Of a stretch of 64,000 nucleotides of DNA, positions 27,694-64,000 are shown in pieces (within the stretch, counting starts at the first letter, position 1; every line of letters starts with the position of its first letter). Location of the stretch: assembly GCA_965214095.1 (NCBI GenBank), contig OZ243938.1, positions 96,001 to 160,000 of the forward strand, in the 5' to 3' direction. Made by a program: the position numbers and the translations under genes. Origin of the DNA: Candidatus Poribacteria bacterium (GTDB lineage Bacteria; Poribacteria; WGA-4E; WGA-3G). The notes beneath the pieces are model-generated. The model was not told the DNA's origin. It searched no databases and saw nothing but the letters and a program-made list of their open reading frames with translations.

Positions 27694-27793
27694 AATATGA
27701 AATTTAATCAATAACGTGACTATAAAAAAGAAAGAAAATAAAAAAATACTACATATTTGCTCAAATACACTTACTATTTATAGGAGATATCTC

Positions 27794-31951: not shown

Positions 31952-32371
31952 ATGATACTTGAAGCTCCTTGCTCCGCATTAAACTTTCATTCAAATGAAA
32001 AAGACTATCACAGCGTTGCCCGTGAAGTATTCCCAATTCTTATTCAACTTGCTACTGATAACACACGTCCGACTATTTCCTATGGACAACTTGCTGAAAA
32101 AGTTGGAGTTACACATATTCCTTCAAATAGAAGAGGACATTGGATGCGTTGGCCACTTGGATCTATATGGTGTACGCTTTTTGAATACCAACAGGAGTCA
32201 GATTTAGACATACCCTATTTAACAACTATTGTTGTCAACAAAAGTACTGGTATCCCCACCGTTTTCAAAGAAAGGTTGAATTGGTCAGAGGAAAAAATCA
32301 AATTGGAACAAGATGCTGTATACAAATTTGAACACTGGACCGATATCATGGAAGCAATCTGCCAAAAGTAG
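31952..32371 (+). CDS. Hypothetical protein, possibly winged-HTH-like
   Basis: Pattern 'TISYGQLAEKVG...LGSI...PYLTTIVVNKSTGIP'. Confidence 0.65.
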   Translation: MILEAPCSALNFHSNEKDYHSVAREVFPILIQLATDNTRPTISYGQLAEKVGVTHIPSNRRGHWMRWPLGSIWCTLFEYQQESDLDIPYLTTIVVNKSTGIPTVFKERLNWSEEKIKLEQDAVYKFEHWTDIMEAICQK

Positions 32372-33589
32372 TCTCCCCACGATCTGACATCTATTGTTAT
32401 GCCCTAACAAATCAAGAATCGCACCCTCTTCATATCAGACGATCTGTCATCAGAAGCTTGCTCGTTCCATTTCGTTTCACATGGCTATGATGAGACGTAA
32501 CTACATTTCACTACGACAACGCCACAGGTACTTCACTACTGCTACGGTTGTATGCTGACGCACCGGCCTTGGCAGACGCATCATACACCCGCATTCACTC
32601 CACCATCCCCGTCTGTTGCATCTGTCCCGTTGCTTTATGAAACCCTTCATAAATACCCAATGACCACCCGTAAAACTGAAACGCAAAACCTGTCAAATCC
32701 GTAATCGTATGCAAAACCTTGACAAACGTGTTCAAATTACTTCCGTATCAACATCTTGCGCGTCGCAGTCCAATCACCCGCTTTGAATGTATAGAAATAC
32801 ACACCTGCCGCAACCTTTTCACCGATTGCGTTCCGACCATCCCAATGTGCAGCACGGCTACGACTTCTGTAGAAACCTGCCTTCTGATGTCCTAACACTA
32901 ACCGCCGCACGACGACACCACGCATATTGTAGATTGTTATTGTGACATCCGATGCTTTGGACAATTGATACGGTAGCCATGTTTCAGGGTTGAACGGGTT
33001 GGGATAATTCAACAGTAAAGCAGTAGTGTTTGGTGTAGCATCTTTGTTAAGGGAAGGCGCGCCGGTATCAGCAGCGTAGATTTCTACCGGCAAGCCTGTG
33101 GAAGGTTTGACGAATCTGTAGCCGGTATGATAATAGGCGGGGATAACTACTATATGGAAAATATCTACAGTGACAGCTTCTGTTGTTCCGGGGGTACGCG
33201 TAACAGTAAAAGTACTACTTTCATTCATTCCTGTGGAAATTCGGAGGACTTTTGGATCAGGGTTTGTCCCATGCTCAAGCTTGATATATACAACAACGTC
33301 ATACGGTGCACCTAATGGTATCACTGCCTTGACTTTCCCGTCTTCAACTTTCTCCAGCGATACAGTAAACAGCATCGGGTCTACGAGGTTACCTAATAAC
33401 CAGAGTCCTAGCAGATCGAAGAGTCCGTTACAGGTGCCCGGTGGTAAAGAACTCAATCTGTTATGCTCCAGATAAAGTAATTGCAATTTAACAAGATTAT
33501 TAAAGATGCCTGATGGCAAGGAACTCAAATCGTTATGATCCAGATCAAGGTATACCAATTTAGCAAGGTTATCAAAGATATCTGGTGGT

Positions 33590-33990
33590 AAGGAACTTAA
33601 ATCGTTATTGCCTAGTCTAAGTTCTTCCAAATTTGTAAGGTTGTCAAAGAGACCCGGCGGTAAAGAACTCAAATCGTTATTGCCTAGTCTAAGTTCTTCC
33701 AAATTTGTAAGGTCGTCAAAGATATCTGATGGTAAGGAACTCAAATCGTTATTGCCTAGTCTAAGTTCTTCCAAATTTGTAAGGTTGTCAAAGATATCTG
33801 ATGGCAAGGAACTCAAATCGTTATCGTACAGCAGAAGCTGTTTCAAATTTGTAAGGTTGTCAAAGAGACCTGGCGGCAAGGCACTTAAATCGTTATTGGC
33901 CAATATAAGCATTCTCAATTTGGTAAGGTTGTCAAAGAGACCCGGCGGTAAAGAACTCAAATCGTTATTGTCCAAAGAAAGTAGTTCCAA
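33590..33990 (-). repeat. 72-bp tandem repeats encoding 24-aa LRRs
   Basis: ATCGTTATTGCCTAGTCTAAGTTCTTCCAAATTTGTAAGG recurs at 33601, 33673 and 33745. Confidence 0.95.
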
Positions 33991-34918
33991 TGCAGTAGTG
34001 TTATCAAAGAGACCCGGTGGCAAGGAACTCACGCTGCCGTATCTCATAAAAAGCGTTTCCAATGCAGGCAATTCATCAAAAATACCTTCGGGTAAAGAAG
34101 TAAAATCATTATAACCCAGATCAAGCTTTCTCAATCGGGTGAGTCCATTGAAATCGCCGGCACTCAACGATGTGATTGCGCGTCTGTCGCGTCTGTTTAG
34201 GTCCAAATCTCTGATTTTCGCCAGATCTTCTGGTGTTACATCATCATCAGTTGCTACGCCAGCTGCAGCAACGATAGCATCCCGAACTGCTGGTGTTCGA
34301 CTGCTAATCGGCGGATCAATAATTTCGGGTACATCGGTAACATTTATCGTCACTGTGATGCTGTCAGTACCATTGTTCCCATCAGAGACAGAAATTATGA
34401 GCGCATACAAGGTTTTCGTTTCATAATCCAACGTTGAACTTGTTTTCAGTATACCGTCATCACGACCAATCTCAAACGCATTATGATCCGTGCTGTTATT
34501 ACTACTGAGACTGTAGATTAAGGTGTCACTGGTATCCTGATCTGTCGCTGTGTAAGTGCCGATCTCTCTGCCAATTGCCACAGTCTCAGCAACATCTATG
34601 CTTGTCCTATACCCTGGTGTGAATACTGGAGGATCGTTGTCATTTGTAACGTTAATCGTGATACCAATAGTATCGCTTGCCTCCTCATCGGAGACAATCA
34701 CTGTTATCAAATAACTGGCTTTGGTCTCATAATCAAGCACAATACCGGTTCTGAGTTGTCCTGTGTTTGGAACAATAGTGAACGCGGCAGCATCACTATT
34801 GATACCGATCCGATAGGTTAAGGTATCACCAGTATCCTGATCTGTTGCAGAAACAGGCGTGCCGACATTCGTTCTCACCTGTGTATTCTCAGCAACGTAA
34901 CGCACTGCGGTAGTGCCT

Positions 34919-36120
34919 TCTGTGAACACGGGTGCATTATTCGGTGTTTGCGTACCCTGATCCGTTTCACCGGCGCGTTGAGGTGTTCCATCGTCATTCT
35001 GACCCGTTTCACCGCTGCCTTGATTCGTAGGTTTATCATCGTCTTTATTTACGACGGTCTCATCTTTATCAGATATATTGACGATGACATCAATGCTGGT
35101 GATGTGTGTGCCATCAGAGACAGTTACTCTTACCTTATAAGTCTTATCTGGGTCTAAAGTGACACCTTCTTTAACTCCCAATTCTCCTGTTTCGGGATCA
35201 ATATCAAACAATTCAGCATCGTCACCGCTGAGCGAATAAGTCAACGTATCGCCATCCGGGTCTGTGGCAGTGATGGTTCCCTCTGTTGTTTCTGTTTCCG
35301 CTTCTGTTGTGATGGTGATAGTCGTGGTTGTGCCTTGGGTGAACACAGGTGGGTTTTCCTCAACATCAATAATATTAATGACAACATCAATACTTGCGGT
35401 GCGTTCTCCATCAGAGGCAGTGATGATGACTGCGTAAGAGTTGTTTGTTTCATAATCCAGTGGTGCTTCTGTTTTCAATTGTCCAGTCGTGCTATCAATA
35501 CTAAACAATGCATCGTCAGTGCCAGCAAGGCTATAGGTAAGGGTGTCGTCATCAGGATCCGTGGCAACAACGGCATCCCCGATGTTAGTCCCTGCCGTTG
35601 TATTTTCTGTCACAGAACGTCTGGTGTTTGTGCCTTCTGAGAACACGGGTGTGCGATTTGACTGGGGTGGTGGTTGTGTTTGTGCTGTTTCGTCAATATC
35701 CGTGACGTTTATCGTAACGTCAATCCTATCTGTGACCTTCCCATCTGTCACGGTAATCGTCACCGAATAGATTGATTGTGTTTCGTAATCCAAAGCAATG
35801 CTGGTTTGCAGCTGCCCTGTGTTATTGTCAACACTGAAAGAACCAGCATCTGTACCACCAAGTGTATAAATCAACGTGTCATTGTCGGCATCTGTTGCTG
35901 TAACGGCATCCCCGATGTTTTCACCTATTTCAGTATTCTCTTCGACAGATCGGGTGGTGGTGCTGCCCTCTGTGAACACGGGTGCATTATTCGGTGTTTG
36001 CGTACCCTGATCCGTTTCACCGGCGCGTTGAGGTGTTCCATCGTCATTCTGACCCGTTTCACCGCTGCCTTGATTCGTAGGTTTATCATCGTCTTTATTT
36101 ACGACGGTCTCATCTTTATC
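34919..36120 (-). repeat. Apparently exact 152-bp direct repeat (34919-35070 and 35969-36120) encoding a disordered linker
   Basis: Identical DNA for 'DKDETVVNKDDDKPTNQGSGETGQNDDGTPQRAGETDQGTQTPNNAPVFT', 1050 bp apart. Confidence 0.93.
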
Positions 36121-39100
36121 GGAGATGTTGATGTTGACATCAATGATGGTGTTGTGTGTGCCATCAGAAACAGTTACCGTTACCATATAAGTCTCACCTA
36201 GTTCTAAAGTTACACCTTCCTTGACTTTCAATTCCCCGGTGTTGGGATCAATATCAAACAGTTCCGCATCGTCGCCACTGATCGAATAAGTCAATGTGTC
36301 GCCATCCGCGTCTGTGGCAGCGATAGCCGCTTCTGTTTCCAATTTCGTTGTGATGGTAATAGTTGTGGTTGTGCCTTGGGCGAATACAGGTGGGTTCTCC
36401 TCAACATCAATAACGTTGATGATAACATCAATATTTGCTGTGAGTTCTCCATCAAAAGCAGTTACCTTCACTGAATAGGATGATTTTGTTTCATAATCCA
36501 ATGGAGATCCTGTTCTCAATTGTCCAGTCGTGTTATCAATACTAAACAATGCAGCATCAGTGCCTTCAAGGCTATAAGTGAGAGTGTCGTCATCAGGGTC
36601 CGTGGCAACAACGGGATCCCCGATATTTTCACCTATTTCAGTATTTTCCTCCACATTCCGAGTCGTGCTGCTACCCTCAGTAAACATCGATGCGCGATTT
36701 TCATTTACATCAGTTATTATGATCGTCACCGAAATGCTTGCAATAGTATCACCATCGGTAGCGGACACGATAACGGTATAGGTAGACTTTGTTTCAAAAT
36801 CAAGGTCTTCCTTCGTTGTCAATTGCCCCGTTTCAGGATCAACCTCAAACGCATCAGCATCTTCTCCGCCCAGGGTATAGGTAAGCCTATCGTTATTCGC
36901 ATCAAGTGCTGTGAATGCTGTGCCGATGTTTATGCCTTCTTCTGTGTTTTCTGGAACAGAGTATGTGGTTGGCGTGGTTTGTGTGAATATAGGTGCTACA
37001 TTGATTAGGGGAAAGATTTCAAGCGGCAAGGCATCTGATTTGACTAACTCGTAGCCTGCATGTAGTGATGGTATGTGTGGGAGTTCACTAATATCTACGG
37101 TAACAGCATCAATCGTGTCTGGCGTTCGGGTGACAGTGTAAGTGTCGCTTTCCACACTACCTTGTGGGATTGTGATGGTGTCTATACTATCAGATATAGT
37201 TCCATTTGTGGTGGTCAGTGTGAGCGATATATCAAACGGCGCACCTGTGGGAATAACCGCTTTGAAACCGTCTTCATCAACCTTTTCTAACGATAAAGTC
37301 AGTGTTAAAGGATCAACGGCGTTTCCACTGAGATCCAATGATTCCAATGACACAAACCCTTCAAAAATACCATCCGGCAGATATGTCAGTTTGTTACCCC
37401 GCAGACTCACTGTTTTCAGTGATAATAGACCATCAAATATGTCTTCTGGTAGATGTGCTAATTCGTTATTGTTGAGATAGAGTGTTGTCAGTGCCAGCAT
37501 ACCAGAGAAGTCATGTGTCCTGAGTGATTTGATCCGCATATCAACTAAATTGAGGTTTGTGATAACAGCAAGATCAACATCTGCCACGTTCTGACAATGC
37601 ATCAATAGTGGATACATCGCTTCAATCGCCGTTACCACTTCGGGTGTGCGATTACACGCAGTTGATCTGGCAAGAACATAGCCGTAATGATTTAGCGGAA
37701 TATCGGCTAACTTCCCTATATCCATAATCGGTGTTTCCCCTGTGGGTACAATCGTAAAAGTTTCACTCTTCAGTGTGCCTTTCTGCACAGTAACCGTTGT
37801 TGTATCTCCGCTGATATTGCCATCGGTAACGATAATCGGTACAACAATATCAAAAGGTGCACCTGTCGGCACAATCACTTGAAATTGGTTTGTGTCAACC
37901 TGTTGTATTGAAACAAAAATCGGCATCGGATTAAGCAGATTATTGCCTAATCGCAGTGTTGTAAGTGCTGTCAAACCTTCAAATATACCAGCAGTCAGAC
38001 CTGTTAGTTTGTTACCGTGAAGGTTGATATCGGAGAGATTAGGCATACCAGAAAAATCACCAGTCTTCAGTCTTGTGATACCGGTATCGCGAAGATTGAG
38101 TGCTGAAATTGCCGCGATCTGTGCATCGGTTATCTCGTCTATAGCAGGTGTCTCTATGAGATTGTTAGCGACTACGACGTTTTCCACTATTGCATCGCGC
38201 ACTTGTGGTGTCCGTTCGCTAAGAGGTAGTGATACAGAGACAAATTCTGTGTCCGCCAAGTCTATCAGACGGATAATGACAGTTATCGTGTCGGTGAGTT
38301 GTCCATCTGATGCAGTGACACTTACAAGATACAACGGCTTCCTTTCAAAATCCAAAGCTGTCTTCGTTTTGAGTTGTCCAGTTTCGGTATCAATATCAAA
38401 TGCATCTGCATCAATACCACCAAGTGAGTATGTGAGGGTGTCGTCTGGTGTGTCGGGAGCATTGTCCATATCTGCTACTGTATCTATAGCCGTGATAGGT
38501 GTGCCAATGTTTTCACCTGCTGCCGTATTCTCTGTTACTGTGCGGACAGTGATAACACCATCAGTGAAAGTCGGGGCGAAGTTGTCTAACACATCAATGA
38601 CATTGATGGTAACTGTGATAGTATCTGTGAGCAGTCCATCGGAAGCGGTGAGCGTGACTGAATAGAAGAACTTTGTTTCGTAGTCTAATGCTGTTTTTGT
38701 TTTAAGTTGTCCAGTTTCAGGGTCAATATCAAACGCCTCTGCGTCAATACCTCCAAGTGTATATGTAAGGGTGTCGTTTGCGTCCATATCTGTTGCAGTA
38801 ATGGGATTACCGATGTTTGTGTCTGATGCCGTATTCTCATCAACAGAAACCGTGATACTTGCACCATCCGCAACACAGGTGGGACATTGCCAATAATAGC
38901 AACAATCGGAAGTGTCTCAGATTTGGATAACACATAACCGTAGTGGTTGCGCGGTAGGTTCGGTAGATTTCCGATGTCCGCAGTGGCATCCAATCTTGAA
39001 TCGGGTGGACGATTGACTGTGATACTCTCGCTAACCATACTCCCTATAGGTATGGTAACCGTCGTGACATTATCCATAAGTATACCGTTGGAAACGCTAA

Positions 39101-39584
39101 TCGGCAGGACAATATCAAATGGAGCACCTTCCAGGACAACAGCCCTAAACTTCCCTTCTGCGACCTTCTCCAATCCGATAGTAAGTGGCAGCGGATCAAC
39201 CGTATTGCCACCTAATCGTAGCGATGTCAAGGCATCCAGTCCTTCAAAAATACCAACCGGCAGACGTCTGAGTTCGTTGGCATATAGGTTCAGATTTGTC
39301 AACCCTGTCAAGCCTGAGAAATCACCAGTTTGCAGTTCAGAAATAGCTGCATTTCTCAGATTGAGCTCAGTTATTGCAGCCAGATGTGCTTCGGTCAATT
39401 GGTCGGCAGTATTGACACCCGCAGCAGATGTGATAGCATCCCGCACCTGTGCTGTGCGTTCACTTGCAGGGACGACTTCGGCTGAAATACCAAAATTCAT
39501 ACCAATAGGAAAAATAACCAATAAAACGGTCATAACACAATTTTGATTCAAAAGTTGCGTAATCACAAGTAACTCCACTTTCAT

Positions 39585-39792
39585 TACCAGGACCGGTAGG
39601 TTCGGTTTCCTAACCGAACCATGGGCGTCAATTTAGTGTAAATTAGGCGTTTTCCCCAGGACGGTAGGTTCGGTTTCCTAACCGAACCGGATCCTACGCG
39701 AGAACCTCTATGAAGGTATTTGGCACAAAGCCGGTTCGGTTTCCTAACCGAACCTACCGGCCCTTGGAAGGACACTAAATTGACCACCCATG
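39585..39792. mobile_element. MITE-like element (39620-39792) containing a REP doublet, plus an adjacent third REP
   Basis: TIRs CATGGGCGTCAATTTAGTGT / ACACTAAATTGACCACCCATG; GGTTCGGTTTCCTAACCGAACC at ~39599, 39667 and 39733. Confidence 0.8.
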
Positions 39793-39838
39793 ATGCGATT
39801 TCCAAACTGCACTATTTACTCAGCCCTGAAAAAACTCC

Positions 39839-42800
39839 TTACTTTCGTATCAACATCTTCCGCGTAGTCGTGAAATCTCCTGCCTTGAATGTGACAAAAT
39901 AGACTCCTGCAGCTACCTTCTCACCAATACTATTTCTACCATCCCAATAAGCAGCACGGTTCCGATTCATGTAGAAACCTGCTTTTTGATGTCCCAATAC
40001 TAACTTACGTACAACAACCCCACGCATATTGTAGATCGTCAATGTAACATCCGATGCTTTCGCTAACTGATACGGTATCCACGTTTCAGGATTGAACGGG
40101 TTGGGGAAATTGGACAAGAGAACAGTCTTGTCGGGTGGCTGGATGTTGCTGGGTGCAGGAGGAATAGCATCAATCACCGTCAACGGCAAATCATCGGATT
40201 TTGTATAATTGCAGCCAGAAAAGCCGGAGAGCGTTGGTAATGTACTAATATCTACCGTAACAGCCTCGGTTGTACCTGCAGTGCGTGTAACGGTGAACTC
40301 ATCACTTTCCACTTCACCTGCTTCCATGACAATACTTGTGACATCACCTGAGATACTTCCATTCGTAACAGCAACGACTGTAGTTGCTTCCTTGGGTGCT
40401 CCTGCGGGTATTTTTACCTTGAACTTTCCATTTGCTGTCTTTATGAGCGTTACGGGGATAGGGACATTGATATACGTCCCAAAACTAACATTGTTGTGAC
40501 TCAGACCAAGATAGCTCAGGTTGGAGAGAACTGTAAAGAACCCATCCGGTAACCTAAGAATATTGTTATTGAAAAGTTCGAGTCTCCTTAGAGCGGTAAG
40601 TGGTTTAAAAGCATCAAGATTTATATTTGCATTAAAACTATTTCCACTGAGATTAAGACTCTGAAGTTTGGTATTATATTTGAAAATATCAGAATGGAAA
40701 TTGAGTAAGTTGCTCTCACCTAATTTAAGGTCAGTCAAATTAACGAGATCATCAAAAATACCTACCGGTAAATTAGTACTATAGAATGAGAACTCTAAAT
40801 GAACCAAATTTACAAGGTCATTAAAATCACCACTGTTTGGATTCCCCACGCCATGGGCAATGTATGTCAATCTCCTAATAAATGAGAGATGATGATTTAG
40901 CAGGTCATCTCGCCTAAGATTCGGAAATCTATCCTTAAGAGCCCACATAATAGAACCATGAAGAGTAGCACCATCATCACTACCAAATATGATTCTTTGT
41001 GTGCGTTCACTAAGAGGAGGGTCAGGTGGGGTTTCATCTATGTCGTTGACCTCAATTGTGACAGCAAGCGTTGCACTATCATTACTTGAACCACTATCAT
41101 CCGTCACCTTGACGGTTATGGAATATGAAGATTGTTCTTCGTAATCCAGTACAACAGCTATTTTGAGCTGCCCGGTTTCACTGTTAATACTAAACGAATC
41201 CGCATCCGTCCCCTCCAGACTATAGGTCAACGTGTCCTCGTCTGCATCCGTTGCTGTAAAACGACTACCAAGGTTGGCATTTATCCTGTTTTTTTCATCA
41301 ACACTCAAGGTTGTACTGACACCGTCATTGAACACAGGCGGATTATTCGTACCAGGTATAATATTTATGTTTGGACCTTTTATGAGACTATATCCGTAAT
41401 GACCTGAGGGCAGGCTTGGTAGGCTGTCAATAGATGCATTGACTCTACTTGTAGAGCCAGAGTTCCGTGTGGCCGTAAGTGTTTCACTATCTGTGCTACC
41501 TCGTGAAATGGAAACACTTGTTACACTGCTATTAATAGTAGCGTTTGAGACACTTACAGGTACTTCTATTTCAAAAGGTGCCCCAACAGCTACCACGACT
41601 TTGAACTCACCGTCTTGGACTTTCACCGCAGTTATATCAAGTGGCAGTGGATCAACGCTGTTGTTTCTTAGGTCAACTCTGTCAAGACTCGAAAGGTTGA
41701 GAAATAACCCGTCCGGTATAGAACTGAAACTGTTGTTTGATAGGTTAATTTCATCAAGTGAAGTGAGTGTATTAAAAATACCATTAGGTAGACTGCTCAA
41801 ATTGTTCTCGCTGAGATCAATTGACTTGAGCGAAGTGTTGTTATCAAAAATCCCCGCGGGGACACTAGTTAAGTTATTCTCATCGGCTCTAAATGAAGTT
41901 ATTGACGTAAGTTCATTGAAAAGACCAGAAGGAAACGTTGTCAAGCTGTTATTTTCGAATGAAATTGCTGTTACACCGGTAAGATCATCAAAATCTCCAG
42001 TTTGAAGACTCGAAATATTCTTTTGTTTGAAATCGAGTGTGCCAGTAATAGCTGCCAGGTCGTCTGCTGCTATATATGCTGGATCGCTTATACCTGTTAC
42101 CGAGATGAGTTTATCGCGTACTTGTTGTGTGCGTTGATTGACAGGTGTGGATGTCTCCGTAGCGTCAAGGATATTGATGGTTACATCAATAGTATCACTG
42201 TTATCGCTATGACTGCTGTCATCAGTTACCTTGACGGTGACGGAATATGAAGATTCATCTTCAAAATCTAATTCTGCACTGGTTTTGAGCTGCCCGTTTG
42301 TGGTGTCAATGCTAAAGGATGCGGCATCTGTGCCTTCCAGGCTATATGTGAGTATATCAAGATCATCTGCATCTGTTGCGGTTAATGGAGCACCGATATT
42401 TGTACCGGGAGCTGTTATCTCCCTCACTGAAAGGGTGATACTGCTACCATCGTTAAATACTGGGGCATTATATTCAGTCCTAATTAAATTTATATTTGGA
42501 CCTTTCCTCAGCCTATAACCATAATGGTTCCAGGGGAGAGAAGAAAACGATCCCAAACTTACAGTGACATTCCCAGTTGTACCTTCGTCGCGTGTGACAG
42601 TAAATGTCTCGCTATCTGTACTGCCCTGTGAAATGGTTGCACTTGTGGCACCACCAGTGATGGAACCATTGGTGACACTCAGTGCCACTGTGATGTCAGT
42701 CGGTGCACCGGTAACTGCGACGACTTTGAACTGATCCACTGCAATTATTTCAAAAGTTATTTCCAGTGGCATCGGATCAACGGGGTTGCCATCCATATCA

Positions 42801-50221: not shown

Positions 50222-50269
50222 TTTTTTGTCCTTTCTTTGTGGAGAAAATCCACCTTTTAGTAATAGAAA

Positions 50270-56200: not shown

Positions 56201-58516
56201 TGCATCTGTCCCACTCATACTATATGTTAGGTCATCACTGTTTGCATCCGTTGCCGAGACTGCACTGCCAATATCAACACCGGCTTCAGTGTTTTCTGGA
56301 ATGGTGCGCGTCGCAGTTGTGCCTTCTGTGAACACAGGAGCAACATTAATCTTGCTGAAAACCTCCAATGGTAGTTCAGGAGATTTGGAAAACGCGTACC
56401 CAGTATGACCAGTAGGCAGACTTGGCAAAATACCGATGTCAACAGTGACAGCATCATAAGTGTTAGGCGTACGAATGACGGTTAGTGGTTGACTTTCCAC
56501 ACTCCCAGCACGGATCGTTATTGTGGTCACATTATCGGCAAGGTTACCACTTGTGACGGTGATCGGTAAGACAATATCTGTGGGTGCACCACTCGGTAGG
56601 ACAGCTATGATTTGGTTTGTACCGATTTTTTGTAATGATACAGTAAACGGAAGTGGATCAACGCTGTTGCCACGCAAATCTAATACCGATAGAGATGTCA
56701 AACCTACAAATATACCATTGGGAAGTCCTGATAATTGGTTATTGCTCAAGTTGAGGGTTGTCAATGACAACAAACCTGAAAAATCATCTGAAGCAAGGTC
56801 GGTTATGGAACTATTATTCAGATCGAGAGATGTAATAGTTGCTAAGTGAAACTCACTAATATTCCGACAGTCTTCTATATTCTCAAAAGCTTCAACAATC
56901 GCATCACTCACTTGTAACGTCCTGTTGCAGACTTTGGATTTGGCAAGGATATAGCCGTAATGGTTCGCTGGAAGTGATGGCAACTCGCCAATGCTAATTT
57001 CAGCACCAGTCGCTGTGAAAGACGCACTTTCAAGAGACCCTTTAGGTATAGTAACTGTTGCAGTATTCCCACCATCAATTGGTAGTAAAATGTCATAAGG
57101 AGCACCAGTCGGTATAATTGCATTGAACGCATTCTCATCAACTTGCTGCAATGAAACAATCAAAGGGAATGGGTCAATCTGGTTACCACCTAAACGTAGA
57201 CTTGTAAGAGAGGTCAAACCATGAAAGATTCCTACCGGTAGGCTGCTCAACATGTTACCGTATAGATTAAGACTGGTTAATCCTGTCAACCCAGAAAAAT
57301 CTCCTGATTTAAGTGATGCAATATTACTATTACGGAAATCCAGACTGGTAATGGCTGCAAGGTGTGCTGCGGTCACATCAGATGCATCGGTCACACCCGA
57401 AATGGCTTCGACAATCGCATCTTGCACTTCTTGCGTGCGTTCACTCACAGGTAGGAAAGTCGAGGTAATAGGTGTATCGTTGACATCAATAACTCTAATA
57501 ATCACAGAAATGGTTGCTGTAAGTTCGTTATCGGAAGCCGTAACGGATACGACGTAGACGCGTTTCGTTTCGTAATCCAAATCTGCCTTCGTTTTAAGCT
57601 GACCAGTTGCACTCTCAATATCAAATGAACCGGCATCTATTCCGCTCAGTGTATATGTCAATTGATCGTTATTGACATCTGATGCTGAGATAGGACTTCC
57701 GATATTTATACCATTATCCGTATTTTCAACGACAGATCGGGTAGTGATTGTTCCGTCAGTAAATGTAGGTGCAGTGTTTTCTTGTACATCAGTTGTATCG
57801 GTAGTATCAGTTGTATCGGTAGTATCAGTAGTTTCTATTACAGCACTGATAACTTCAAGTGGTAACCCCTCAGATGTCGTCAGCGCATAACCGTAATGGT
57901 TTTGTGGCAAAGTGGGTAAAGTGCCAATATTTGCTGAGACAGCCGCCGTAGAGTTTGCTGTGCGGGTAACAGTAACCGCATCACTTTCTGTTGCACCTAT
58001 AGAGATCGTCAGACTTGTTGTACTATCGGAGAGCGATGCATTTGTAACGCTGATTGGGACTTGAATATTAAAAGGTGCACCTGTTGGTGCTATCGCTTTG
58101 AATTGATCCTCACCAACTTTTTCAAGCGTAACGGTGATGGGAATAGGGTCAACGGTGTTGCTTCCTAATCGCAAGCTTGTCAGAGCAGTCAATCCCTCAA
58201 AGATACCATTTGGCAAACTGCTGAGTTCATTGTTGTATAGATTCAGATTAGTTAAACCTGTCAATCCTGCGAAATCACCGGATTTCAGTTCAGTGATGCC
58301 TTTGCCTCTAAGGTCAATACTTGTTATTTCTGCTAAATGTGTGTTGGTTACGTCTGTTGCGGTGTTGACACCTGCAGCAGTCACGATTGCATCGCGTACC
58401 TCTGCTGTGCGATCACTCACATCCGCATACGTTGATACACCCAGAGTCAATAATATCGTCCATAAGACAATAAAAGTCGATTTTGTCCAACTGCTTCTCA
58501 TAGTATTCATTTTCAT
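50270..58516 (-). CDS. Giant cadherin-repeat/LRR secreted protein C (2748 aa) with CTD; close paralogue of B
   Basis: Same N-terminal modules and stalk as B, but a single long C-terminal LRR module. Confidence 0.93.
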   Translation of the reverse strand: MKMNTMRSSWTKSTFIVLWTILLTLGVSTYADVSDRTAEVRDAIVTAAGVNTATDVTNTHLAEITSIDLRGKGITELKSGDFAGLTGLTNLNLYNNELSSLPNGIFEGLTALTSLRLGSNTVDPIPITVTLEKVGEDQFKAIAPTGAPFNIQVPISVTNASLSDSTTSLTISIGATESDAVTVTRTANSTAAVSANIGTLPTLPQNHYGYALTTSEGLPLEVISAVIETTDTTDTTDTTDTTDVQENTAPTFTDGTITTRSVVENTDNGINIGSPISASDVNNDQLTYTLSGIDAGSFDIESATGQLKTKADLDYETKRVYVVSVTASDNELTATISVIIRVIDVNDTPITSTFLPVSERTQEVQDAIVEAISGVTDASDVTAAHLAAITSLDFRNSNIASLKSGDFSGLTGLTSLNLYGNMLSSLPVGIFHGLTSLTSLRLGGNQIDPFPLIVSLQQVDENAFNAIIPTGAPYDILLPIDGGNTATVTIPKGSLESASFTATGAEISIGELPSLPANHYGYILAKSKVCNRTLQVSDAIVEAFENIEDCRNISEFHLATITSLDLNNSSITDLASDDFSGLLSLTTLNLSNNQLSGLPNGIFVGLTSLSVLDLRGNSVDPLPFTVSLQKIGTNQIIAVLPSGAPTDIVLPITVTSGNLADNVTTITIRAGSVESQPLTVIRTPNTYDAVTVDIGILPSLPTGHTGYAFSKSPELPLEVFSKINVAPVFTEGTTATRTIPENTEAGVDIGSAVSATDANSDDLTYSMSGTDATSFNIDANTGQFKTKAALDYETKSSFSVTVTVSDGSLTDTITVAISVTDVDENRAPVFTEGSSTTRTVAENTDSGVDIGSAVSATDDDEDTLTYSLSGTDASSFSINSTSGQLQTSAALDYETKSSYSVTLTVSDGSLSDSIDVTINITDIDETAVVDETTDVKDDPPNNAPEFTEGDSATRSIAENTGSGVDIGSTVSATDADKDTLTYSLSGTDAESFSINSTNGQIRTSAALDYEDKSSYTVKVNVSDGNEGSDSITVTINVSDVDKRSANTAPEFTEGSTATRSIAENTGSGVDIGSAVSATDEDEDTLTYSLSGTDASSFSINSTNGQIRTSASLDYETKSSYTVTVNVSDSEGGSDSITVTINLTDVDEAPTNNSPEFASDDITVSVPENTDADTNIGSPVSATDDDDDTLTYSLGGTDAAEFDIDTETAQLKTKSELNYESKSAYTVIVNVSDGEGSSDSVEVTINVSNVNEAPVFSAETTTRSIAENVKANINIGAAVSATDVDANTTLTYSLGGTDSVSFSIDEKTGQLKTKAPLDFEDKDSYTVTVSVTDGSLSDSITVSISVRDLDETPSNIAPVFSDGEDTTRSVPENTAEDTDIGEAIAATDEDSETLAYLLSGTDASSFSIDDETGQLKTSAALDYEDKNSYTVTVTVSDGSLEDEITVTINVSNVNEAPAFEDGESTTRRVAENTASGVDFGRAFVATDPDENTTLTYTLEGDDAESFDFNSTTKRLQTKAALDYEDTSSYSVALKVSDGELSVSIEISIMVRDVDENRAPVFEEGADTTRSVAENTGSGEDIGDAVTATDADEDTLTYTLGGTDETSFSINSTNGQLRTNAALDFEEKKSYSVEITVSDDNGGEATIEVTINVTDVDENTAPEFSEGETATRSVAENTGTGLDIGDAVEASDADEDELEYTLGGTNAAAFSINSTSGQLRTKDALDFETKDSYTVTVTVSDGSLEDEITVTINVTDANDAPKFTQTSPITFSIAEHTAANVNIGSPFPATDQDGDDFEYSIGGTDGSSFDIDTDTGQIKTKDGLNHEASASHSVTVTVTDDSGESNNSASINVTINVTDANDAPTFSETSPATRAIAENTVADTNIGTPVAATDEDGDDLEYSLGGTDADSFSIDDETGQIKTKDALDFEDDASYSVTVTATDDSGESNNSATIDVDINITDVTENRPPTFSVNSFDYRISNINDVSVGDSIGDALTATDPDNDTLTYSVSGNDAAKFDIDNSGQLKVTQALIDDTKSNYSIKVVADDSNGGKAEVSGTVTAALRISMQVVNNTPTFDETAPVTRSIAENTPADTDIGEPVSASDDDTDDTLTYSLEGTDASSFSIVTTSGQLKTSAPLDYENKDSYSVTVKVTDDSGVSNASATIDVTINVTDVDEGITPVSERTAGVRDAIVAAVDGVNSADDVTAEHLAAITSLSIIGGYISRGNWSPKLTALQAGDFDGLTGLTELSLLFNALPTLPDGIFDGLTALESLELPFNGMTSLPDNIFAELSNLTYLDLGVNNFTTLSSGMFNGLSALEHLDLYNDEDQTDSQLASLPVGVFDELTSLKNIQLWGNKLTTLPAGIFDKNTNLEELIIYYNGLTTLPAGIFDKNSELKHLGLHINNLASLPADMFDNNSKLNYLNLLQNGLSALPDGIFDGLTNLNQLNLSSNDLTTLPSGIFENNTNLRYLNIASNNISSLPANTFSSLTKLTNLYMGGNNLSTLPDGLFVGLTKLTSFEGGGLTLKVKLEKVADGQFKAVCPVGVPSKFHIHPHPTVTNGYIDPDERTGAFDTGEDYFYDILIKVGQSESGIIDVIRTAGTTDAVTVNLTDVKSQRGIYNHGYNFVVDTDSLPIEVIPAVPPGPSNSIEIPDNTQLLSNYPNPFNPETWIPYQLSKPADVSLTIYNTRGVVVRKLVLGHQKAGFYKDRRQAAYWDGRNSNGEKVAAGIYFITFNADDYTSTRKMLIRK

Positions 58517-58559
58517 AATAGATTCCTTTCGGTGTTGACCATAGACATATCATTTTTAA

Positions 58560-58790
58560 ATAACTTCTGACCTGCTGCTATGAAGGTGTAAAAATAAGGA
58601 CCAGTTGCGATTCTTATCAATGCAGTCTAGTTCATCCCAATGTTTAGTACCGCCTCGGGTGGCAGAATATCTGCGTGCCAACGGCTTAACGAGTGCACCA
58701 TTCGTGGCGTTAACCGGAACAAAAAGAGGAGTATGTCCCGGTTGTTGCCACGATTTTTGGACTTGTCAGCTCCTGCTATTTACGATGACT
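58560..58790 (-). pseudogene. Heavily decayed relic of an LRR-module/CTD gene
   Basis: Frame-hopping translation gives 'GADK..IVATTG..VPVNATNG' (compare GEDQFKAVAPTG..VPISVTN) and 'HWD...IATGPYFYTF' (compare HWDGRN..VAAGVYFYTF). Confidence 0.5.
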
Positions 58791-58919
58791 GATTGATTCT
58801 GATAGTATCTCTATTCAAGTGAAATCCCTTTCGTTATAGTTTTGGTTACTTTTCTGAGTTCTCTACGATTAATGTCTAGCGATTCGGCCACTGTTTCTAC
58901 TGTTCCTCTTGTTGTGTAC

Positions 58920-60357
58920 TCAGAATTTTAATTCTGTCCACGAACAGATAGACCTACTTTTTGCAGACACAAACCCATGCATGCGAACGGTAACTAACTG
59001 AGTCTGATCTCCAGCATACGAGACATCCTCAAGACGATAATAGTAATCCGTATTAGGCTTGGCGGTGGTGTCTATCCAAGTGTATTCGGTGCGTTCTGCT
59101 GTTGTGCCTGACCCTATGACCATATTTGAGTTGACTATCCTGAATTCGCCACTCTTTGTTTCGCTGCGATAGATATGGAAACCTGCGTTGTCTACCTCCG
59201 ATTCGGTTGTCCATTTCAGCACAACACTTACATCAGTACGTTCTGCTCAGAATTGTCACTCGGATTGTTACAGATAAGCTGCTATCACTTACAATCACCT
59301 CTATTTCGTAGCTTTGCTGTGTTTGATAATCCAATGCTGCAAAGGTCAACAACTGTCCTGTGTTTTCATCAATCCGAAAGGATTCAGCATTGTGTCCGCC
59401 AAGTTGATATATGAGCGTATCACTACTATCGGGATCGGTTGCTAAGATGGGATTGCCGATATTGCTATCAGCACCTGTGTTTTCTGCAATTGATCGTGAG
59501 GTGGATAGACCTTCCGTAAATGACGGTGGACTGTTCTCAGGTTCTACATCAGTGACCTCAACTATAACTTCAATAGAATCCGTATTGACTACATTTCCAG
59601 GATTGCTATTTCTGTCTGATGCATTTTCATGATCACTATCATCAACACCTAACGTGAATGAATATGTATTATTGCCATCTTCATCAACAGGTGCTTCAAA
59701 ATCAAGCCGAGTAGATAACACTAATTGCGCACTACCATCAAATTCCATAAGAGAGAAATAATTGCTATCAGGTGTGTCCTGAAGGCTATATTTCAAACTA
59801 TTCTTTCCTTCATCAAGATGTATGTCATCTCCATCTGTGGCATTTATCACAACACCAATATTACTACCGACCTCTTGACTTTCTGGTATGGTGATTCGGA
59901 TCGGACCCTCCGATGAAAATTCTGGTGAATGTTCGTTTAGGTTGTTCACCAGAATAATAAGAATCATAGAGTCATGGTTCAAATACTGATCCATAACCCG
60001 AATTTTAACTTTATATTTTCTCTTTACCTCATAATCCAATTCAGTGACTGTTGTCACTGCACCGTTACGAAGGTCAATTGCAAAGTCGTCAGAGTCTCTT
60101 CCATACCAAGCATCAATCATATATTCCATTGGTTCATCTCCTGGATGCGATGCTGTTATTGTTATTAAATGTGTCCCAATGGCTTCCCCCTCATCCACAT
60201 TCGTATAAGATTCATGACTTGGAAGTCTGGGTGAATCATCACCATGTGGATGTGCATAAACCTGATTCCAGATGTCAAAACACATGTATTGATATAGAAC
60301 AGATGTTAGAAAAGTTATCAACAGACAAATTGTTCGGTTTGAGTTATTAATTCTCAT
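58920..60357 (-). pseudogene. Secreted cadherin-repeat protein D joined out of frame (near 59249) to a C-terminal 'LKWTTESEVDNAGF' Ig/FN3-like domain
   Basis: ORF 59233-60357 stops just after its third cadherin repeat. Another frame reads 'AERTDVSVVLKWTTESE...' from the same point to 58920. Confidence 0.75.
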
Positions 60358-60387
60358 GAAACCTTCCCTTGTTTCATTTTGTAGAAT

Positions 60388-63300
60388 TTACTTTCGTATC
60401 AACATTTTTTGCGTAGCATAAAAATCTCCTGCTCTGATAGTGACGAAGTAGACTCCTGTTGCCACCTTCTCCCCGATGTTGTTTCTTCCATCCCAATGTG
60501 CCGCACGGCTTCTGCTGGTATAGAAACCCGCATTTTGATGACCAATTGCCAACTCACGTACCACCACACCACGCATATTGTAGATTGTCAACATAACATC
60601 CGCTGACTCTGACAACTGATACGGTATCCATGTCTCTGGGTTAAATGGATTCGGGAAGTTGGGTAAGAATGCAGTATCTTTGGGAACTTGTTGCTTATTT
60701 GATGGTGCTCCAGCAGGTTCACTAAAACCGTCTAATGCTGGAGGATCCGTTAATGTATAACCGCTATGATGACTTGGTGGATCTGTAACAGTCTGCAATA
60801 TCACACTGACTTCATCCCAATCGAATTTGTCATCGCGTGCAATTGTAATCGTTTCACTATCAGTGTTACCTTTGGCAATTGTAAGTTCGGGTCTATCCGG
60901 CCCAGTTTCATCCCCAACGTAACCTTTGACTATCCAAACCTGAGCAGTCATAGGATACGGTGCACCTGCTGGAATGACGATTTTGAATTTATTGTTTTCT
61001 ACTTTCTCTAAAGTAACCGTAAGGTCGAGTTCTCCTGCTTCTTGTTGGCTTAAGTAGAGATAATTTAACGCTGTAAGGTTGACGAATAAACCATTCGGAA
61101 AAGTCGTTAATTTATTGCTTCTCATGTTGAGTGTTGTGAGAGAAGTTAGCTTTTGAAAAATGGTTCCGGGTAGCGAACTCAACTCGTTACGTTCAAGGCT
61201 AATGGCTACCAGTGAGGTTAACGGATCGAAGATACCGGATGGCAGTGTGGTCAGTTTGTTATTCGACAATGTGAGATTGGTTAACGCAGATAAACCATCA
61301 AAAGCATCTGAGGGTAAAGATGCCAATCCGTTTTCACTTAGATTAAGATTTGTTAGTGCAGTGAGATTATCAAAGACACTGGATGGGACCGTGGTTAATT
61401 TATTATTATTCAATGGAAGGTTAGTTATACCACTCAAACTATCAAATAAACCTGCGGGTAAGGAAGCGATTTCGTTGTAACTTAAATTAATCTCCTCCAA
61501 TGCAGTAAGACCCTCAAAGTCATCTGAGGCAAATGTTTCAATATCTCCACCGCCAAGATTGAGAACCTTTAAGCTTGACATATCGTCAAAGAGACCATCA
61601 GGTAATGCTGTGAAATCGTTTCCCGCCAGCGATAAAGTCTCAAGAGAAGTTAGATCTGCAATAACATCAGGCACAGTTTCAAAATAATTTCCTTCAGTAT
61701 CAAGGGATGTTAGTAAAGTGAGACTGTCAAATATGCCATCTGGTAGGGTGGTTAAACTGTTATAACTAATATCAAGTGACGTTAATTGCGTGAGTGAGTC
61801 AAAAACACTATCTTGTAATGAATCAATGCCATTAACTTCTAAATCAAGTTTTTGTAGTGATGTCAAGTCGTCAAAGATATTATCTGGAAGAGACTCTAAG
61901 AAAATATTCCCTGTTAATGAAAGTGAAGTTAGTCCTGTGAGTCCGCTGAAATCACCTCCCATAAGTTCATAAATACTGTCACTGATACCTGGTGCTGAAT
62001 AGGAAAGGCTTGTAATGGCTGCAAGGTGTTCAGCAGTTACATCCGCGGCATCATCTACATCCGTAATAGCATCAAGAATCGCATCTCTTATTTGCTGTGT
62101 GCGATCACTAACAGGAACAAAGGCACCAGACTCGTCGGTTATATTGATCGTAACTATGATCGTATCCGTTGCCCCAGCGGCATCCGTCACTTTAACTGTC
62201 ACTGTGTATATGCTTTTCGTTTCATAGTCTAATTCATCCTTCGTTTTTAATTGACCCGTGCTGCTATTGATGTCAAACGAAGCTGCATCTGTGTCCGTGT
62301 CTTCAAGTGAGTAAGTTAATGTGTCATTTTCATCTGCATCCGTTGCAGACACAGGGTCACCGATCGGTGTATTGGAGAGTGTATTCTCACCAACCGAACG
62401 ATTCGCCGTTTCACCTTCATCAAATACGGGGGCATTGTTCGGCTCAGCACGGGTAACATTAACAGTCACATCGACCCATGAAGATTGTCTAACGACAGAG
62501 GCAAATACCCTAAAAGAATAGGAGAGTCTTCTATCGTCAATGAGTTCTGTTGTAGCTTTCAGCTGTCCCGTTTCACTATCAATATCAAATAGATCGCCAA
62601 CAACAACGACACTGTATGTGATCGTCTCACCCTCAGGATCCACGGCTACATAAGCATCACCGATAGCATCTCCATCCGATAAATTATTTATGTTGTCTAT
62701 ATCAATAGTCGTAGGTGCTGTAGTAAATACGGGACGTTCATTTACTGCTGTAACATTGATCGTTACGGGAATGGTCGTACTATTATTCTCTTCACCACTA
62801 TCTTCTGTTGCTGTAACGGTCACGCTATAGGTTGTCTGTGCGTTTGCAGCGTCAACATCCAGTTCATCCTTTGTTTTCAACTGTCCTGTGCTTGTATCAA
62901 AATCAAATGATGCCGCATCTGTCCCACCAAGGCTATAGGTAATGGTATCCCCATCTTGGTCAGTCGCAGCAATTGGACCACCGATGGCTGTATCTACAGC
63001 AGTAGTCTCAGGAACAGAACGGGTCGCACTCTCACCATCAACAAACGTGGGTGCATCGTTGACATCTCTGACAGAAATAGTCACTGTGATTGATGAACTA
63101 CCACTATTTGTGTCAGTAGCAACAACTCTTACGGTGTAGGTTGACTTCGTTTCATGGTCAAGTGCGTTCTTCATTGTTATCTGTCCTGTGGTATGATCAA
63201 TATCAAACGATGTCCTATCTGGACCTCTCAATGTATATGTGATTGTGTCACCTTCCAGATCCGTCGCAGAAACAGGTTGTCCAATGTTTGTATCTATCGG

Positions 63301-64000
63301 ACTGTTTTCATCAACAGCACGGGATGTCGTCGCACCCTCAGTGAAGGTTGGCACATCATTCGCATCTATTACCTTGATTGTTACCTGAATATTAGCAGTT
63401 TCATTATCCGCTCCGACCACTCTCACCGTCACCGAATATGTTGATTTATTTTCAAAATCAAGATCAGCAGCAGTTTTGATTTGCCCCGTAGCACTGTCAA
63501 TGCTAAACGATGAAGCATCCGTGCCACCAATCTGATAAATGAATTCGTCATTACCAACTACTATAGCTGTGACAGGGGCACCGATGTTGACACCAGAAGC
63601 CGTGTCTTCTGCAATCTCGCGCGTGGCAGAACTGCCATCGGTAAATACAGGTAAATCCGTTACAGTTATCGTGACCGTAATTGAATCGCTGAGTTCCCCA
63701 TCAGAGACGGTGATGCTAACGGAATAGGAGTTTTTGTTTTCAAAATCCAAGTCTCCACTTGTTCGCAATTGACCTGTTGTGCTATCAATGCCAAACGACG
63801 ATGCATCCGTGCCACCAAGCGTATATGTTAATGTATCGGTGGTATCCTGATCTGTCGCCGCAATTGGATTCCCTATATCTACTCCAGAACCTGTATTTTC
63901 AGCAACAGACCGCGTGGTACTGCTACCCTCTGTGAAGACTGGTGCTCTGTTAGGGTCTCTGACAACATTTTCCTGTTCGTCTGTGACACTGATATTCACC
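60388..64000 (-). CDS. Cadherin-repeat/LRR secreted protein E with CTD; 5' end lies outside the window
   Basis: Frame is open at the window edge; about six cadherin repeats, one long LRR module, and 'NFPNPFNPETWIPYQL...TQKMLIRK'. Confidence 0.92.
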   Translation of the reverse strand, partial: VNISVTDEQENVVRDPNRAPVFTEGSSTTRSVAENTGSGVDIGNPIAATDQDTTDTLTYTLGGTDASSFGIDSTTGQLRTSGDLDFENKNSYSVSITVSDGELSDSITVTITVTDLPVFTDGSSATREIAEDTASGVNIGAPVTAIVVGNDEFIYQIGGTDASSFSIDSATGQIKTAADLDFENKSTYSVTVRVVGADNETANIQVTIKVIDANDVPTFTEGATTSRAVDENSPIDTNIGQPVSATDLEGDTITYTLRGPDRTSFDIDHTTGQITMKNALDHETKSTYTVRVVATDTNSGSSSITVTISVRDVNDAPTFVDGESATRSVPETTAVDTAIGGPIAATDQDGDTITYSLGGTDAASFDFDTSTGQLKTKDELDVDAANAQTTYSVTVTATEDSGEENNSTTIPVTINVTAVNERPVFTTAPTTIDIDNINNLSDGDAIGDAYVAVDPEGETITYSVVVVGDLFDIDSETGQLKATTELIDDRRLSYSFRVFASVVRQSSWVDVTVNVTRAEPNNAPVFDEGETANRSVGENTLSNTPIGDPVSATDADENDTLTYSLEDTDTDAASFDINSSTGQLKTKDELDYETKSIYTVTVKVTDAAGATDTIIVTINITDESGAFVPVSDRTQQIRDAILDAITDVDDAADVTAEHLAAITSLSYSAPGISDSIYELMGGDFSGLTGLTSLSLTGNIFLESLPDNIFDDLTSLQKLDLEVNGIDSLQDSVFDSLTQLTSLDISYNSLTTLPDGIFDSLTLLTSLDTEGNYFETVPDVIADLTSLETLSLAGNDFTALPDGLFDDMSSLKVLNLGGGDIETFASDDFEGLTALEEINLSYNEIASLPAGLFDSLSGITNLPLNNNKLTTVPSSVFDNLTALTNLNLSENGLASLPSDAFDGLSALTNLTLSNNKLTTLPSGIFDPLTSLVAISLERNELSSLPGTIFQKLTSLTTLNMRSNKLTTFPNGLFVNLTALNYLYLSQQEAGELDLTVTLEKVENNKFKIVIPAGAPYPMTAQVWIVKGYVGDETGPDRPELTIAKGNTDSETITIARDDKFDWDEVSVILQTVTDPPSHHSGYTLTDPPALDGFSEPAGAPSNKQQVPKDTAFLPNFPNPFNPETWIPYQLSESADVMLTIYNMRGVVVRELAIGHQNAGFYTSRSRAAHWDGRNNIGEKVATGVYFVTIRAGDFYATQKMLIRK

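Follow-up and report, generated by a model that had tools for sequence, protein, structure and literature searches.

Internalins of Listeria (InlA, InlB, InlJ and others) are a multigene family of surface proteins that bind host molecules through the concave face of their leucine-rich repeats (LRRs) and carry a fused beta-rich domain. RTX adhesins such as MpIBP and LapA, together with SiiE, use a stalk of Ca2+-binding beta-sandwich repeats to hold binding modules off the cell; they depend on type I secretion and have no LRR modules. InlJ of P. gingivalis and BspA of T. forsythia are LRR surface proteins with a type IX sorting domain, having single LRR regions of other LRR classes. Here we analyze a 64,000-nt stretch from a Candidatus Poribacteria genome (genome G000, contig C1, positions 96001-160000; hereafter the window), which contains a tandem array of giant genes whose predicted products join cadherin repeats, LRR modules and a type IX secretion system (T9SS) type A sorting domain. 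Coordinates are positions in the window, and features beyond 64000 lie outside it.

The richness of sponge symbionts in LRR and cadherin domains is known; the build of the whole molecules and their evolution are little described. Sections of a study of poribacterial single-cell genomes report LRR, cadherin and TIGR04183 domains (PMC3909097), and sections of a study of sponge metagenome-assembled genomes report enrichment in LRR and cadherin genes (PMC8163846). The eukaryote-like repeat and cadherin proteins of these symbionts come from the same phylum and belong to the same domain classes as those of the array, and in those sections they appear as domain counts. Adhesion to host cells, to matrix or to other microbes is the function proposed for such domains in sponge symbionts in parts of two reports (PMC8163846, PMC13747020). 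We found no description of the cap-LRR-tail module, of the arrays or of their evolution in the literature searched; supplementary tables, which lay outside the search, may list such genes.

The array modules are like internalins in the order of cap, LRRs and a fused domain after the LRRs. An earlier note on this DNA, written from the sequence, had assigned them the internalin layout; the order stands, whereas the repeat is 24 aa rather than 22 aa and the C-terminus carries a TIGR04183 domain rather than LPXTG or GW anchoring. The array tail also lacks a sequence match to any Pfam family or solved structure, and four to seven modules sit inside each cadherin protein of 2000-4700 aa. With RTX adhesins and SiiE the array proteins share a stalk and binding modules, and they differ in having a hydrophobic N-terminus and a T9SS-type C-terminal domain. 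Bacteroidota T9SS LRR proteins differ in lacking cadherin stalks and in belonging to a phylum with a complete T9SS. The variable lymphocyte receptors (VLRs) of jawless vertebrates have the same LRR class (matches to VLR A/B at E 1e-30 to 1e-38) and vary at the concave face. In contrast to VLRs, the array genes are complete, with no partial donor cassette arrays and no sign of somatic or programmed assembly, and their diversity is germline and old. The bab/sab/alp genes of Helicobacter pylori are alike in that conserved gene ends are homogenized and the binding region is divergent, and differ in folds, size, domain modularity and host. The array combines eukaryote-like adhesin families of symbionts, internalin-like LRR modules and concerted evolution of paralogous adhesins, and its build is notable.

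We favor, with moderate confidence, the view that the array is one locus of a large paralogous family encoding giant exported adhesin-like proteins in a sponge-symbiotic Candidatus Poribacteria, the product of ordinary recombination and old LRR lineages. The earlier note had pictured constant stalks carrying variable LRR heads, with conserved caps and tails serving as homology arms for the exchange of heads.

A tandem array of giant genes

The array occupies 32737-64000 and continues to 68019 (about 35.3 kb) in a 5.2-Mb genome that consists of one large contig with 41% GC. The co-oriented giant genes seen in the window are confirmed, all on the minus strand: three are intact (B, C and E), one is frameshifted (D+A), and a cadherin-only relic accompanies them, with intergenic gaps of 30-716 bp. 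Each gene follows one plan: behind a hydrophobic N-terminus come three short cap-LRR-tail modules and a cadherin stalk, followed by one to three long modules and, at the end, a T9SS type A sorting domain (C-terminal domain, CTD). Pfam, our own hidden Markov models (HMMs) and TIGR04183 bear out the proposed layout of cadherin repeats, cap-LRR-tail module and shared CTD. The open reading frame (ORF) D had been listed as a broken gene in its own right; a gene is indeed broken here, and D is its N-terminal piece. D and A overlap in different frames and are a single gene broken by one frameshift near 38870-38900: at this point the D frame encodes a module tail, whereas the following cadherin repeat is encoded in the A frame. 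The relic proposed earlier is likewise present, as three cadherin repeats only. The features are as follows.

32737-38787, minus strand: ORF A, 2016 aa, remainder of the broken gene
37645-38229 and 37018-37665, minus strand: short modules of ORF A
33082-34314, minus strand: head module of ORF A, with the CTD at 32740-33024
33440-34031, minus strand: LRR tandem array in the A head (Tandem Repeats Finder: 72-bp period, or 24 aa; 8.2 copies; 80% matches)
38685-39584, minus strand: ORF D, 299 aa, N-terminal piece of broken gene A, with the hydrophobic N-terminus and the first short module (38901-39473)
39839-50221, minus strand: gene B, 3460 aa, 17 cadherin repeats
49550-50122, 48596-49132 and 48041-48616, minus strand: short modules of gene B
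42482-43345, 41357-42148 and about 40175-41038, minus strand: long modules of gene B, with single cadherin repeats between them; the last has a degenerate cap
39842-40126, minus strand: CTD of gene B
47120-48199, minus strand: tract of B near-identical to C (synonymous divergence, dS, 0.044 over 255 aligned codons; C counterpart at about 55745-56521, estimated from alignment offsets)
50270-58516, minus strand: gene C, 2748 aa, with a cadherin stalk and the CTD at 50273-50557
57854-58426, 56918-57454 and 56363-56938, minus strand: short modules of gene C
50612-51985, minus strand: single long module of gene C, 341 aa from cap to tail, with 10 regular LRRs found
59233-60357, minus strand: relic, an ORF of 374 aa in which a hydrophobic N-terminus precedes three cadherin repeats sharing about 35% identity with the stalks; it lacks both an LRR module and a CTD
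60388-68019, minus strand: gene E, 2543 aa, of which the C-terminal 1203 aa lie in the window (60388-64000)
60730-62118, minus strand: long module of gene E, with the CTD at 60391-60675
65878-67950, minus strand, outside the window: three short modules of gene E

The terminal LRR heads differ in sequence and in length, as the earlier note had stated. From cap to tail, the C-terminal modules measure 308 aa in A, 186 and 162 in B, 341 in C and 358 in E, and their nearest paralogs in the genome are 40-53% identical, none above 53%. We use the word head with care, since the image of a variable head may mislead should the proteins be anchored by their C-terminus.

Gene A contains an internal duplication in its cadherin stalk (34914-35586 and 35964-36627; 86.5% identity over 673 bp), which includes an acidic, Gln/Gly-rich linker present twice between cadherin repeats. 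After the first module, B and C carry a (Thr-Thr-Asp)n linker encoded by an in-frame 9-bp repeat, with 7.7 copies in B (49464-49532) and 5 in C (57788-57832).

Cadherin repeats, LRRs, caps and tails

Pfam Cadherin (PF00028) matched 10 stretches in A, 18 in B and 15 in C (E 1e-104 to 2e-198), and 5 in the in-window part of E (3e-57 to 2e-198 overall), with a repeat-to-repeat spacing of 99-116 aa. Cadherin Ca2+-site motifs lie at repeat borders and are of the LDRE-like, DxD and DxNDN types. Using regular expressions, we detected putative counterparts in each gene (8-17 LDYE-like, 7-18 xTDxD and 0-6 Dx[ND][DE]..PxF), spaced by about 100-105 aa. Pfam LRR_8 matched 10 stretches in A, 12 in B and 9 in C. 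Each LRR unit has 24 aa and is of the typical class, with concordant repeat lists and a 72-bp period. A profile of the module matched designed LRRs, LRRTM, LGR4/5, VLR A/B and repebodies in the Protein Data Bank (PDB; E 1e-28 to 1e-66), in agreement with the earlier assignment to the LRR class of VLRs.

For caps and tails we built HMMs of 61 and 102 positions, respectively, from the modules in the window and searched them against the six-frame translation of the genome; both elements proved to be conserved. The cap aligned weakly to internalin caps, at E 0.032 with an InlB-derived cap stretch (module profile) and at E 0.19 with the InlJ cap region (cap-only profile). The tail had no Pfam match at E up to 5 and no meaningful PDB sequence match at E up to 10, and the ESM Atlas contained neither the tail sequence nor a homologue. 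The earlier note had called the tail Ig-like, a putative assignment for which these sequence searches gave no match. We considered a divergent cadherin repeat as an identity for the tail and rejected it, the hhalign probability against a cadherin-repeat profile being 1.8%. A search of 1.84 billion proteins at E <= 1e-3 retrieved 1060 cluster representatives of the tail family, and 821 of these also pass E <= 1e-10. From these matches the tail is a real, so far uncharacterized domain family.

Tails occur in 55 of 151 sampled genomes of the phylum, this one counted, at 0 to at least 32 copies per genome. They were found in 51 of 99, 1 of 10 and 2 of 26 genomes of three families (f1, f2 and f3) and in 0 of 15 genomes of the other six. 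In the array of a second species (G003), several C-terminal modules have caps and no tail detectable by HMM, for example four caps in a 4037-aa gene; the tail is therefore not obligatory in every module.

A genome-wide family

The earlier note had described the modules within the array. The family is not special to it and extends through the genome, and the array genes also carry their three short N-terminal modules each. We counted 86 caps and 76 tails, which form 74 cap-tail pairs; they are spread over 24 ORFs at about ten loci. In 34 of the 74 modules, cap and tail lie 86-90 aa apart, and the distance grows from there in increments of roughly 24 aa, corresponding to whole LRR units, to a maximum of 403 aa. 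At least five genes outside the array have the same plan as B, C and E, with short modules at about residues 45, 370 and 540, then the stalk, one to four long modules and the CTD. The combined length of the 24 ORFs is about 56,300 codons and accounts for roughly 3% of the genome. The CTD motif NPFNP[ES]TW occurs 67 times in the genome and is present in 18 of the 24 module ORFs. In the species collection, all 10 related loci are titled Candidatus Poribacteria.

Two of the family loci, at 3.00-3.05 Mb (minus strand) and 3.458-3.485 Mb (plus strand) of the same contig, are inverted relative to each other and carry near-identical modules, with exact DNA matches up to 210 bp, cap identity of 1.00 and tail identity of 0.96-1.00. 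Neighboring modules in the same genes differ in LRR number (166 versus 282 aa). The arrangement resembles the outcome of a recent inverted segmental duplication whose modules were remodelled afterwards.

Recombination has shaped the array genes

A comparison of B and C reveals mosaic divergence. Nucleotide identity in 180-nt windows ranges from 54% to 100%, and dS from 0.044 at B residues 691-1050, through 0.22-0.49 over most of the stalk, to about 1.0 in the CTD, 1.08 at residues 1281-1400 and 1.41 over the second and third short modules. B and C agree in up to 70 consecutive codons, and none of 2000 shuffles produced a run that long. When E is included, informative sites favor grouping B with C at residues 130-330 and 679-780, and B with E at residues 329-379 and 479-629. 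The counts for BC|E, BE|C and CE|B are 47:2:0 at residues 180-229 and 7:40:4 at 579-629.

The closest species compared (G020) has an array of the same build, beside a remnant of the same flanking gene. This 106-aa remnant lies next to the first G020 array gene, is 56% identical to the 1167-aa ORF that flanks gene E, and is the only flank common to the two arrays. The G020 genes g1, g2, g3 and g4 encode 3387, 4273, 2552 and 1785+936 aa. The last, g4, is the counterpart of gene C and is one reading frame with a single in-frame TGA (13883-13885 of locus L029). That codon sits in an odd stretch repeating the nearby peptide TDAGSFDID, and it looks as if a small local duplication broke the gene. The stalk of g4, the one most like that of C, is 63% identical to it over 1792 aa, and the g4 head is 56% identical to the C head, both together in the one gene.

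Head and stalk trees, whose comparison the earlier note had proposed, are not congruent. In the N-terminal tree (589 columns), B, C and E form a clade with support of 98 and g1-g4 one with support of 100. The three short modules (N1, N2 and N3) likewise each fall into genome-specific clades in G000, G003 and G020, with very short branches and support of 92-100. The tree of long modules, built on cap and tail columns, instead unites C with the C-terminal module of g4 (g4c) and p3030 (99/98), and module g2_3863 of G020 with p3047_3904 from another G000 locus (96/88). Approximately unbiased (AU) tests on the N-terminal data rejected the groupings C+g4 (p 3e-48), E+g3 (2e-36), g2+p3047 (2e-6) and B+g2+p3047, with p from 3e-48 to 9e-6. 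On the head data they rejected as clades C+E (0.009), C+E+A (0.003), the three large G020 heads and all nine G020 heads (1e-5). The A head has its best relative in G003 (54%), versus 40% within G000. The data support a role for recombination in shaping the array genes.

The breaks fall at module borders. Homology between B and C (86% over 4.4 kb) stops 14 aa inside the head cap and starts again directly behind the tail, beside the CTD; between g2 and g3 (91%) it stops 58 aa past the start of the cap and is likewise restored behind the tail. One chimeric module, p3021_1344, has a cap 0.80 identical to that of p3458_35 and a tail 0.85 identical to that of p3458_1924, the latter with a 96-bp exact DNA match; the LRRs in between are 0.45-0.46 identical and differ in repeat number. 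Across 2701 module pairs, cap and tail identity correlate at r = 0.26. When caps or tails of different modules are compared, the longest stretch of identical DNA is 8-9 bp at the median and 13-15 bp at the 95th percentile. It reaches 25 bp or more in 11 of the 2701 pairs for caps and in 19 for tails, and the 12 longest listed are mostly same-position modules of close paralogs. Exchange is seen between close paralogs and mostly homogenizes the N-terminus, stalk and CTD. The earlier proposal of recombination-diversified genes survives in that recombination shaped them, with breaks at module borders; its visible effect is homogenization of N-terminus and stalk, and the heads are old. The idea that caps and tails act generally as homology arms fits poorly, given their short matches and a right-hand break that lies after the tail, beside the CTD.

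The dedicated diversification machinery that such a scheme might imply was not found. A diversity-generating retroelement was rejected, since no reverse transcriptase domain (PF00078, RVT_1) was found in the genome, whereas the search detected it in 3 of 14 control genomes. No recombinase domain was present in the 25 flanking ORFs scanned, which encode metabolic or unknown proteins, and the five resolvase genes, at 2.45-3.41 Mb, all lie outside any LRR locus. The inverted repeats in 27000-64000 are CTD-to-CTD matches, palindromes resembling repetitive extragenic palindromic (REP) elements, or short imperfect pairs of 25-29 nt. A site-specific inversion system or shufflon was rejected because no recombinase stands beside the array and no inverted repeats beyond these types bound the variable segments. 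VLR-like cassette assembly was also rejected: B, C and E are complete, D+A has one frameshift only, and the 30-716 bp gaps leave no room for silent donor cassettes.

Concave faces of the C-terminal modules

No part of the proteins diverges faster than the LRR concave faces of the C-terminal modules. Concave positions 2, 3, 5, 7 and 8 have an entropy of 3.42 bits over 249 LRR units taken from 41 long modules, compared with 2.26 at other non-anchor positions, the excess that the earlier note had anticipated. In the nearest head pairs, 10/50 (C and g4c), 8/45, 3/15 and 3/25 concave positions are identical (12-20%); for the same pairs the other variable positions give 46/100, 40/90, 22/40 and 22/50, and identity at anchor positions is 75-85%. 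The short N-terminal modules show the opposite order when compared across species, with 36 of 45 concave positions identical (80%) and 59 of 90 other variable positions.

The heads of B and C also occur in sequencing run X1, a second sponge metagenome that comes from a different study. Its eight listed contig pieces match the heads of B and C at 93.9-95.7% and the stalk at 91.9-95.1%, and they are too short to bridge the head/stalk junction. Run X2 yielded scattered fragments only. At this divergence of about 5%, the heads are no more variable than the stalk. A protein search with the C head plus the end of its stalk gave 890 matches, the best full-length ones 55-56% identical, and no close variant; in a metagenome contig scan, 242 stretches matched the search pattern and none was a relative.

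Export and orientation

With TIGR04183, the model for the T9SS type A sorting domain, A, B, C and E score 33.4, 28.4, 27.1 and 29.8 bits, respectively, all above the cut-off of 23. The Pfam model Por_Secre_tail gave 18.6-24.9 bits, under its cut-off of 27. Hydrophobic N-termini combined with a type A CTD would direct these proteins across both membranes, and they are probably located at the cell surface. A T9SS-like route is the candidate for their export and is unproven.

Type A CTDs usually serve as anchoring signals, the CTD end being the anchored end of T9SS type A cargo. If this holds here, the N-terminal trio of short modules would form the distal tip, and the long variable modules would lie near the cell.

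Interpretation and alternatives

We propose that the family arose by tandem and dispersed duplication. Recurrent ordinary homologous recombination (gene conversion) among close paralogs would then keep the N-terminal modules, stalks and CTDs of one genome alike, as divergent LRR-module lineages persist for long periods, escape homogenization and are occasionally exchanged at module borders; 24-aa LRR units would be gained and lost along the way. The pattern of constant stalk and variable LRR module would thereby emerge on an evolutionary time scale, with no programmed shuffling. We infer from the sequences that the proteins may be displayed on the surface, where the LRR concave faces could adhere to host, matrix, particles or other cells and the cadherin stalk could act as a Ca2+-stiffened rod, and that selection may favor head diversity. 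Taken together, this suggests a repertoire of adhesins rather than programmed gene-shuffling.

Several points weigh against this reading. The T9SS machinery was matched below threshold only: a SprA-like 2196-aa ORF at 2.57 Mb (67.9 bits; cut-off 200), three PorU-like ORFs of 2153, 2161 and 1752 aa at 2.64, 2.78 and 3.09 Mb (252-284 bits; cut-off 420) and a PorV-like 401-aa ORF at 1.41 Mb (97.5 bits; cut-off 250), alongside a PorP-like match of 25 bits. GldL and GldM models had no match in this genome, although the control genomes were equally silent. On the side of the trees, the AU clades were named after a first module tree had been seen, which makes their p-values optimistic, and the pairs E+g3 and g2_3464+p3047_3456 of that tree were not recovered in the careful one. 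The arrays compared come from two other species (G020 and G003), with one flank shared with G020. At the concave positions, dN/dS among repeats of one head is 0.70-1.36 (about 1) and saturated, so that relaxed constraint is not separable from positive selection. Finally, a protein search with the C head returned 1502 matches at E <= 1e-30, of which the best 120 were all at most 51% identical, with no strain-level relative. The SprA-, PorU- and PorV-like ORFs may nonetheless represent divergent export and attachment machinery for the 67 CTD proteins. In the poribacterial single-cell genomes, sections of the corresponding report describe the CTD without T9SS machinery (PMC3909097).

The scheme closest to the earlier note, in which caps and tails are kept as homology arms for frequent head exchange and the genes are rapidly shuffled, strain-polymorphic receptors analogous to VLRs or antigenic-variation cassettes, accounts well for break points that coincide with cap starts and tail ends, for chimeric modules with near-identical tails on unrelated LRRs or with only a shared cap, for the near uncoupling of cap and tail similarity, and for the conflict between head and stalk trees. 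We nevertheless consider it quite unlikely. Caps and tails share too few identical bases, array heads lack a donor above 53% identity in the genome, and a C-like head and a C-like stalk stand together in G020 in a single frame cut by one stop. The X1 pieces match heads and stalk about equally, the gaps have no space for silent cassettes, and neither RVT_1 nor an adjacent recombinase was found. If gene conversion is instead dispensed with, each species would have duplicated its genes in tandem independently, and heads would have been inserted later by domain insertion or by lateral transfer from other loci or co-resident symbionts. N-terminal parts that cluster by genome and the patchy occurrence of the family fit this idea, as does the lateral transfer of cadherin and eukaryote-like repeat (ELR) genes among sponge symbionts described in part of one study (PMC8163846). 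We rate it very unlikely, since a 30-fold range of dS in one gene pair and the alternation of BC|E and BE|C within the N-terminal 830 aa are unexpected from simple duplication, and head placement would still need recombination at module borders.

Other readings concern function and the sequence itself. The proteins could be released eukaryote-like effectors or decoys that modulate host phagocytosis or immunity, using the CTD for export only. Their LRRs are most like metazoan extracellular LRR proteins (LRRTM, LGR4/5, IGFALS and VLR), and in parts of two reports eukaryote-like proteins of sponge symbionts, expressed in other bacteria, altered uptake by sponges (PMC13747020, PMC8163846). Against this, 10-18 cadherin repeats and lengths of 2000-3500 aa would suit a surface spacer better than a diffusible factor. 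The usual anchoring role of the type A CTD points the same way, and we regard release as unlikely. Mis-assembly of the array, by repeat collapse or chimerism, is also unlikely, and in our estimate improbable in the extreme. The region is highly repetitive, and contigs from runs X3 and X4 contain many short joints. These joints have sides of 24-70 nt within repeats and were not taken as rearrangements; the listed joints at depths of 154 and 206.4 share the depth of an 8092-nt contig running towards E and would most simply be E repeats placed on B and C. A single 5.2-Mb contig makes up the chromosome, G020 and G003 have arrays built in the same way, and X3/X4 contigs with 0 differences over 39729-43643, 49906-51371, 51416-52283 and 58210-59499 bridge both head/stalk junctions and the B/C gap, though these runs may be the source sample and hence not independent.

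A further reading, rather unlikely in our view, builds on the adhesin repertoire. The family could form a germline recognition repertoire in which a gene-converted chassis is interchangeable across about 20 genes, and ancient LRR lineages under diversifying or balancing selection are occasionally re-dealt at cap and tail borders, with species- or strain-specific sets deciding which host, tissue or partner is held. If so, this would be a bacterial counterpart of LRR-based immune receptor families, built round an undescribed tail domain. On the adhesin-repertoire reading that we favor, the complete long genes reveal a repeated building plan and an uncharacterized module-closing domain in a family that takes up about 3% of the genome. 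What had been a census of domains thereby becomes a source of testable hypotheses, on the binding partners of individual modules in the sponge and on whether the sets of heads follow the host species.

Intergenic elements and neighboring genes

The gap between B and D contains a 22-nt palindrome three times (39599-39620, 39667-39688 and 39733-39754), spaced by about 67 bp. With up to 2 mismatches it occurs 190 times in forward and 176 times in reverse orientation across the genome, compared with 0 for a reversed control pattern, and it looks like a REP-like intergenic element. A read-depth bin at 39500-40166, which also covers the B CTD, reaches about 100 times the depth of neighboring bins in X3 and X4. 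A promoter and terminator scan of 32000-40000 found no excess over shuffled sequence (15 versus a mean of 17.0; 8 versus a mean of 5.9).

Upstream of the array lie three PhyH dioxygenase genes (15064-15822, 18656-19390 and 19712-20446) and a sulfatase gene (6516-7952). A 1031-aa protein encoded convergently with the array (27716-30811, plus strand) has an array-type CTD at its end and a dockerin type I repeat (E 5e-8); the remainder had no Pfam match at E <= 1e-5. The 1167-aa ORF beyond gene E (68380-71883, outside the window) is divergent from it and had no Pfam match. The second contig of the assembly (C2, 32,066 bp) has a GC content of 0.64, compared with 0.41 for the chromosome, and is possibly a foreign contig or a contaminant in the bin.

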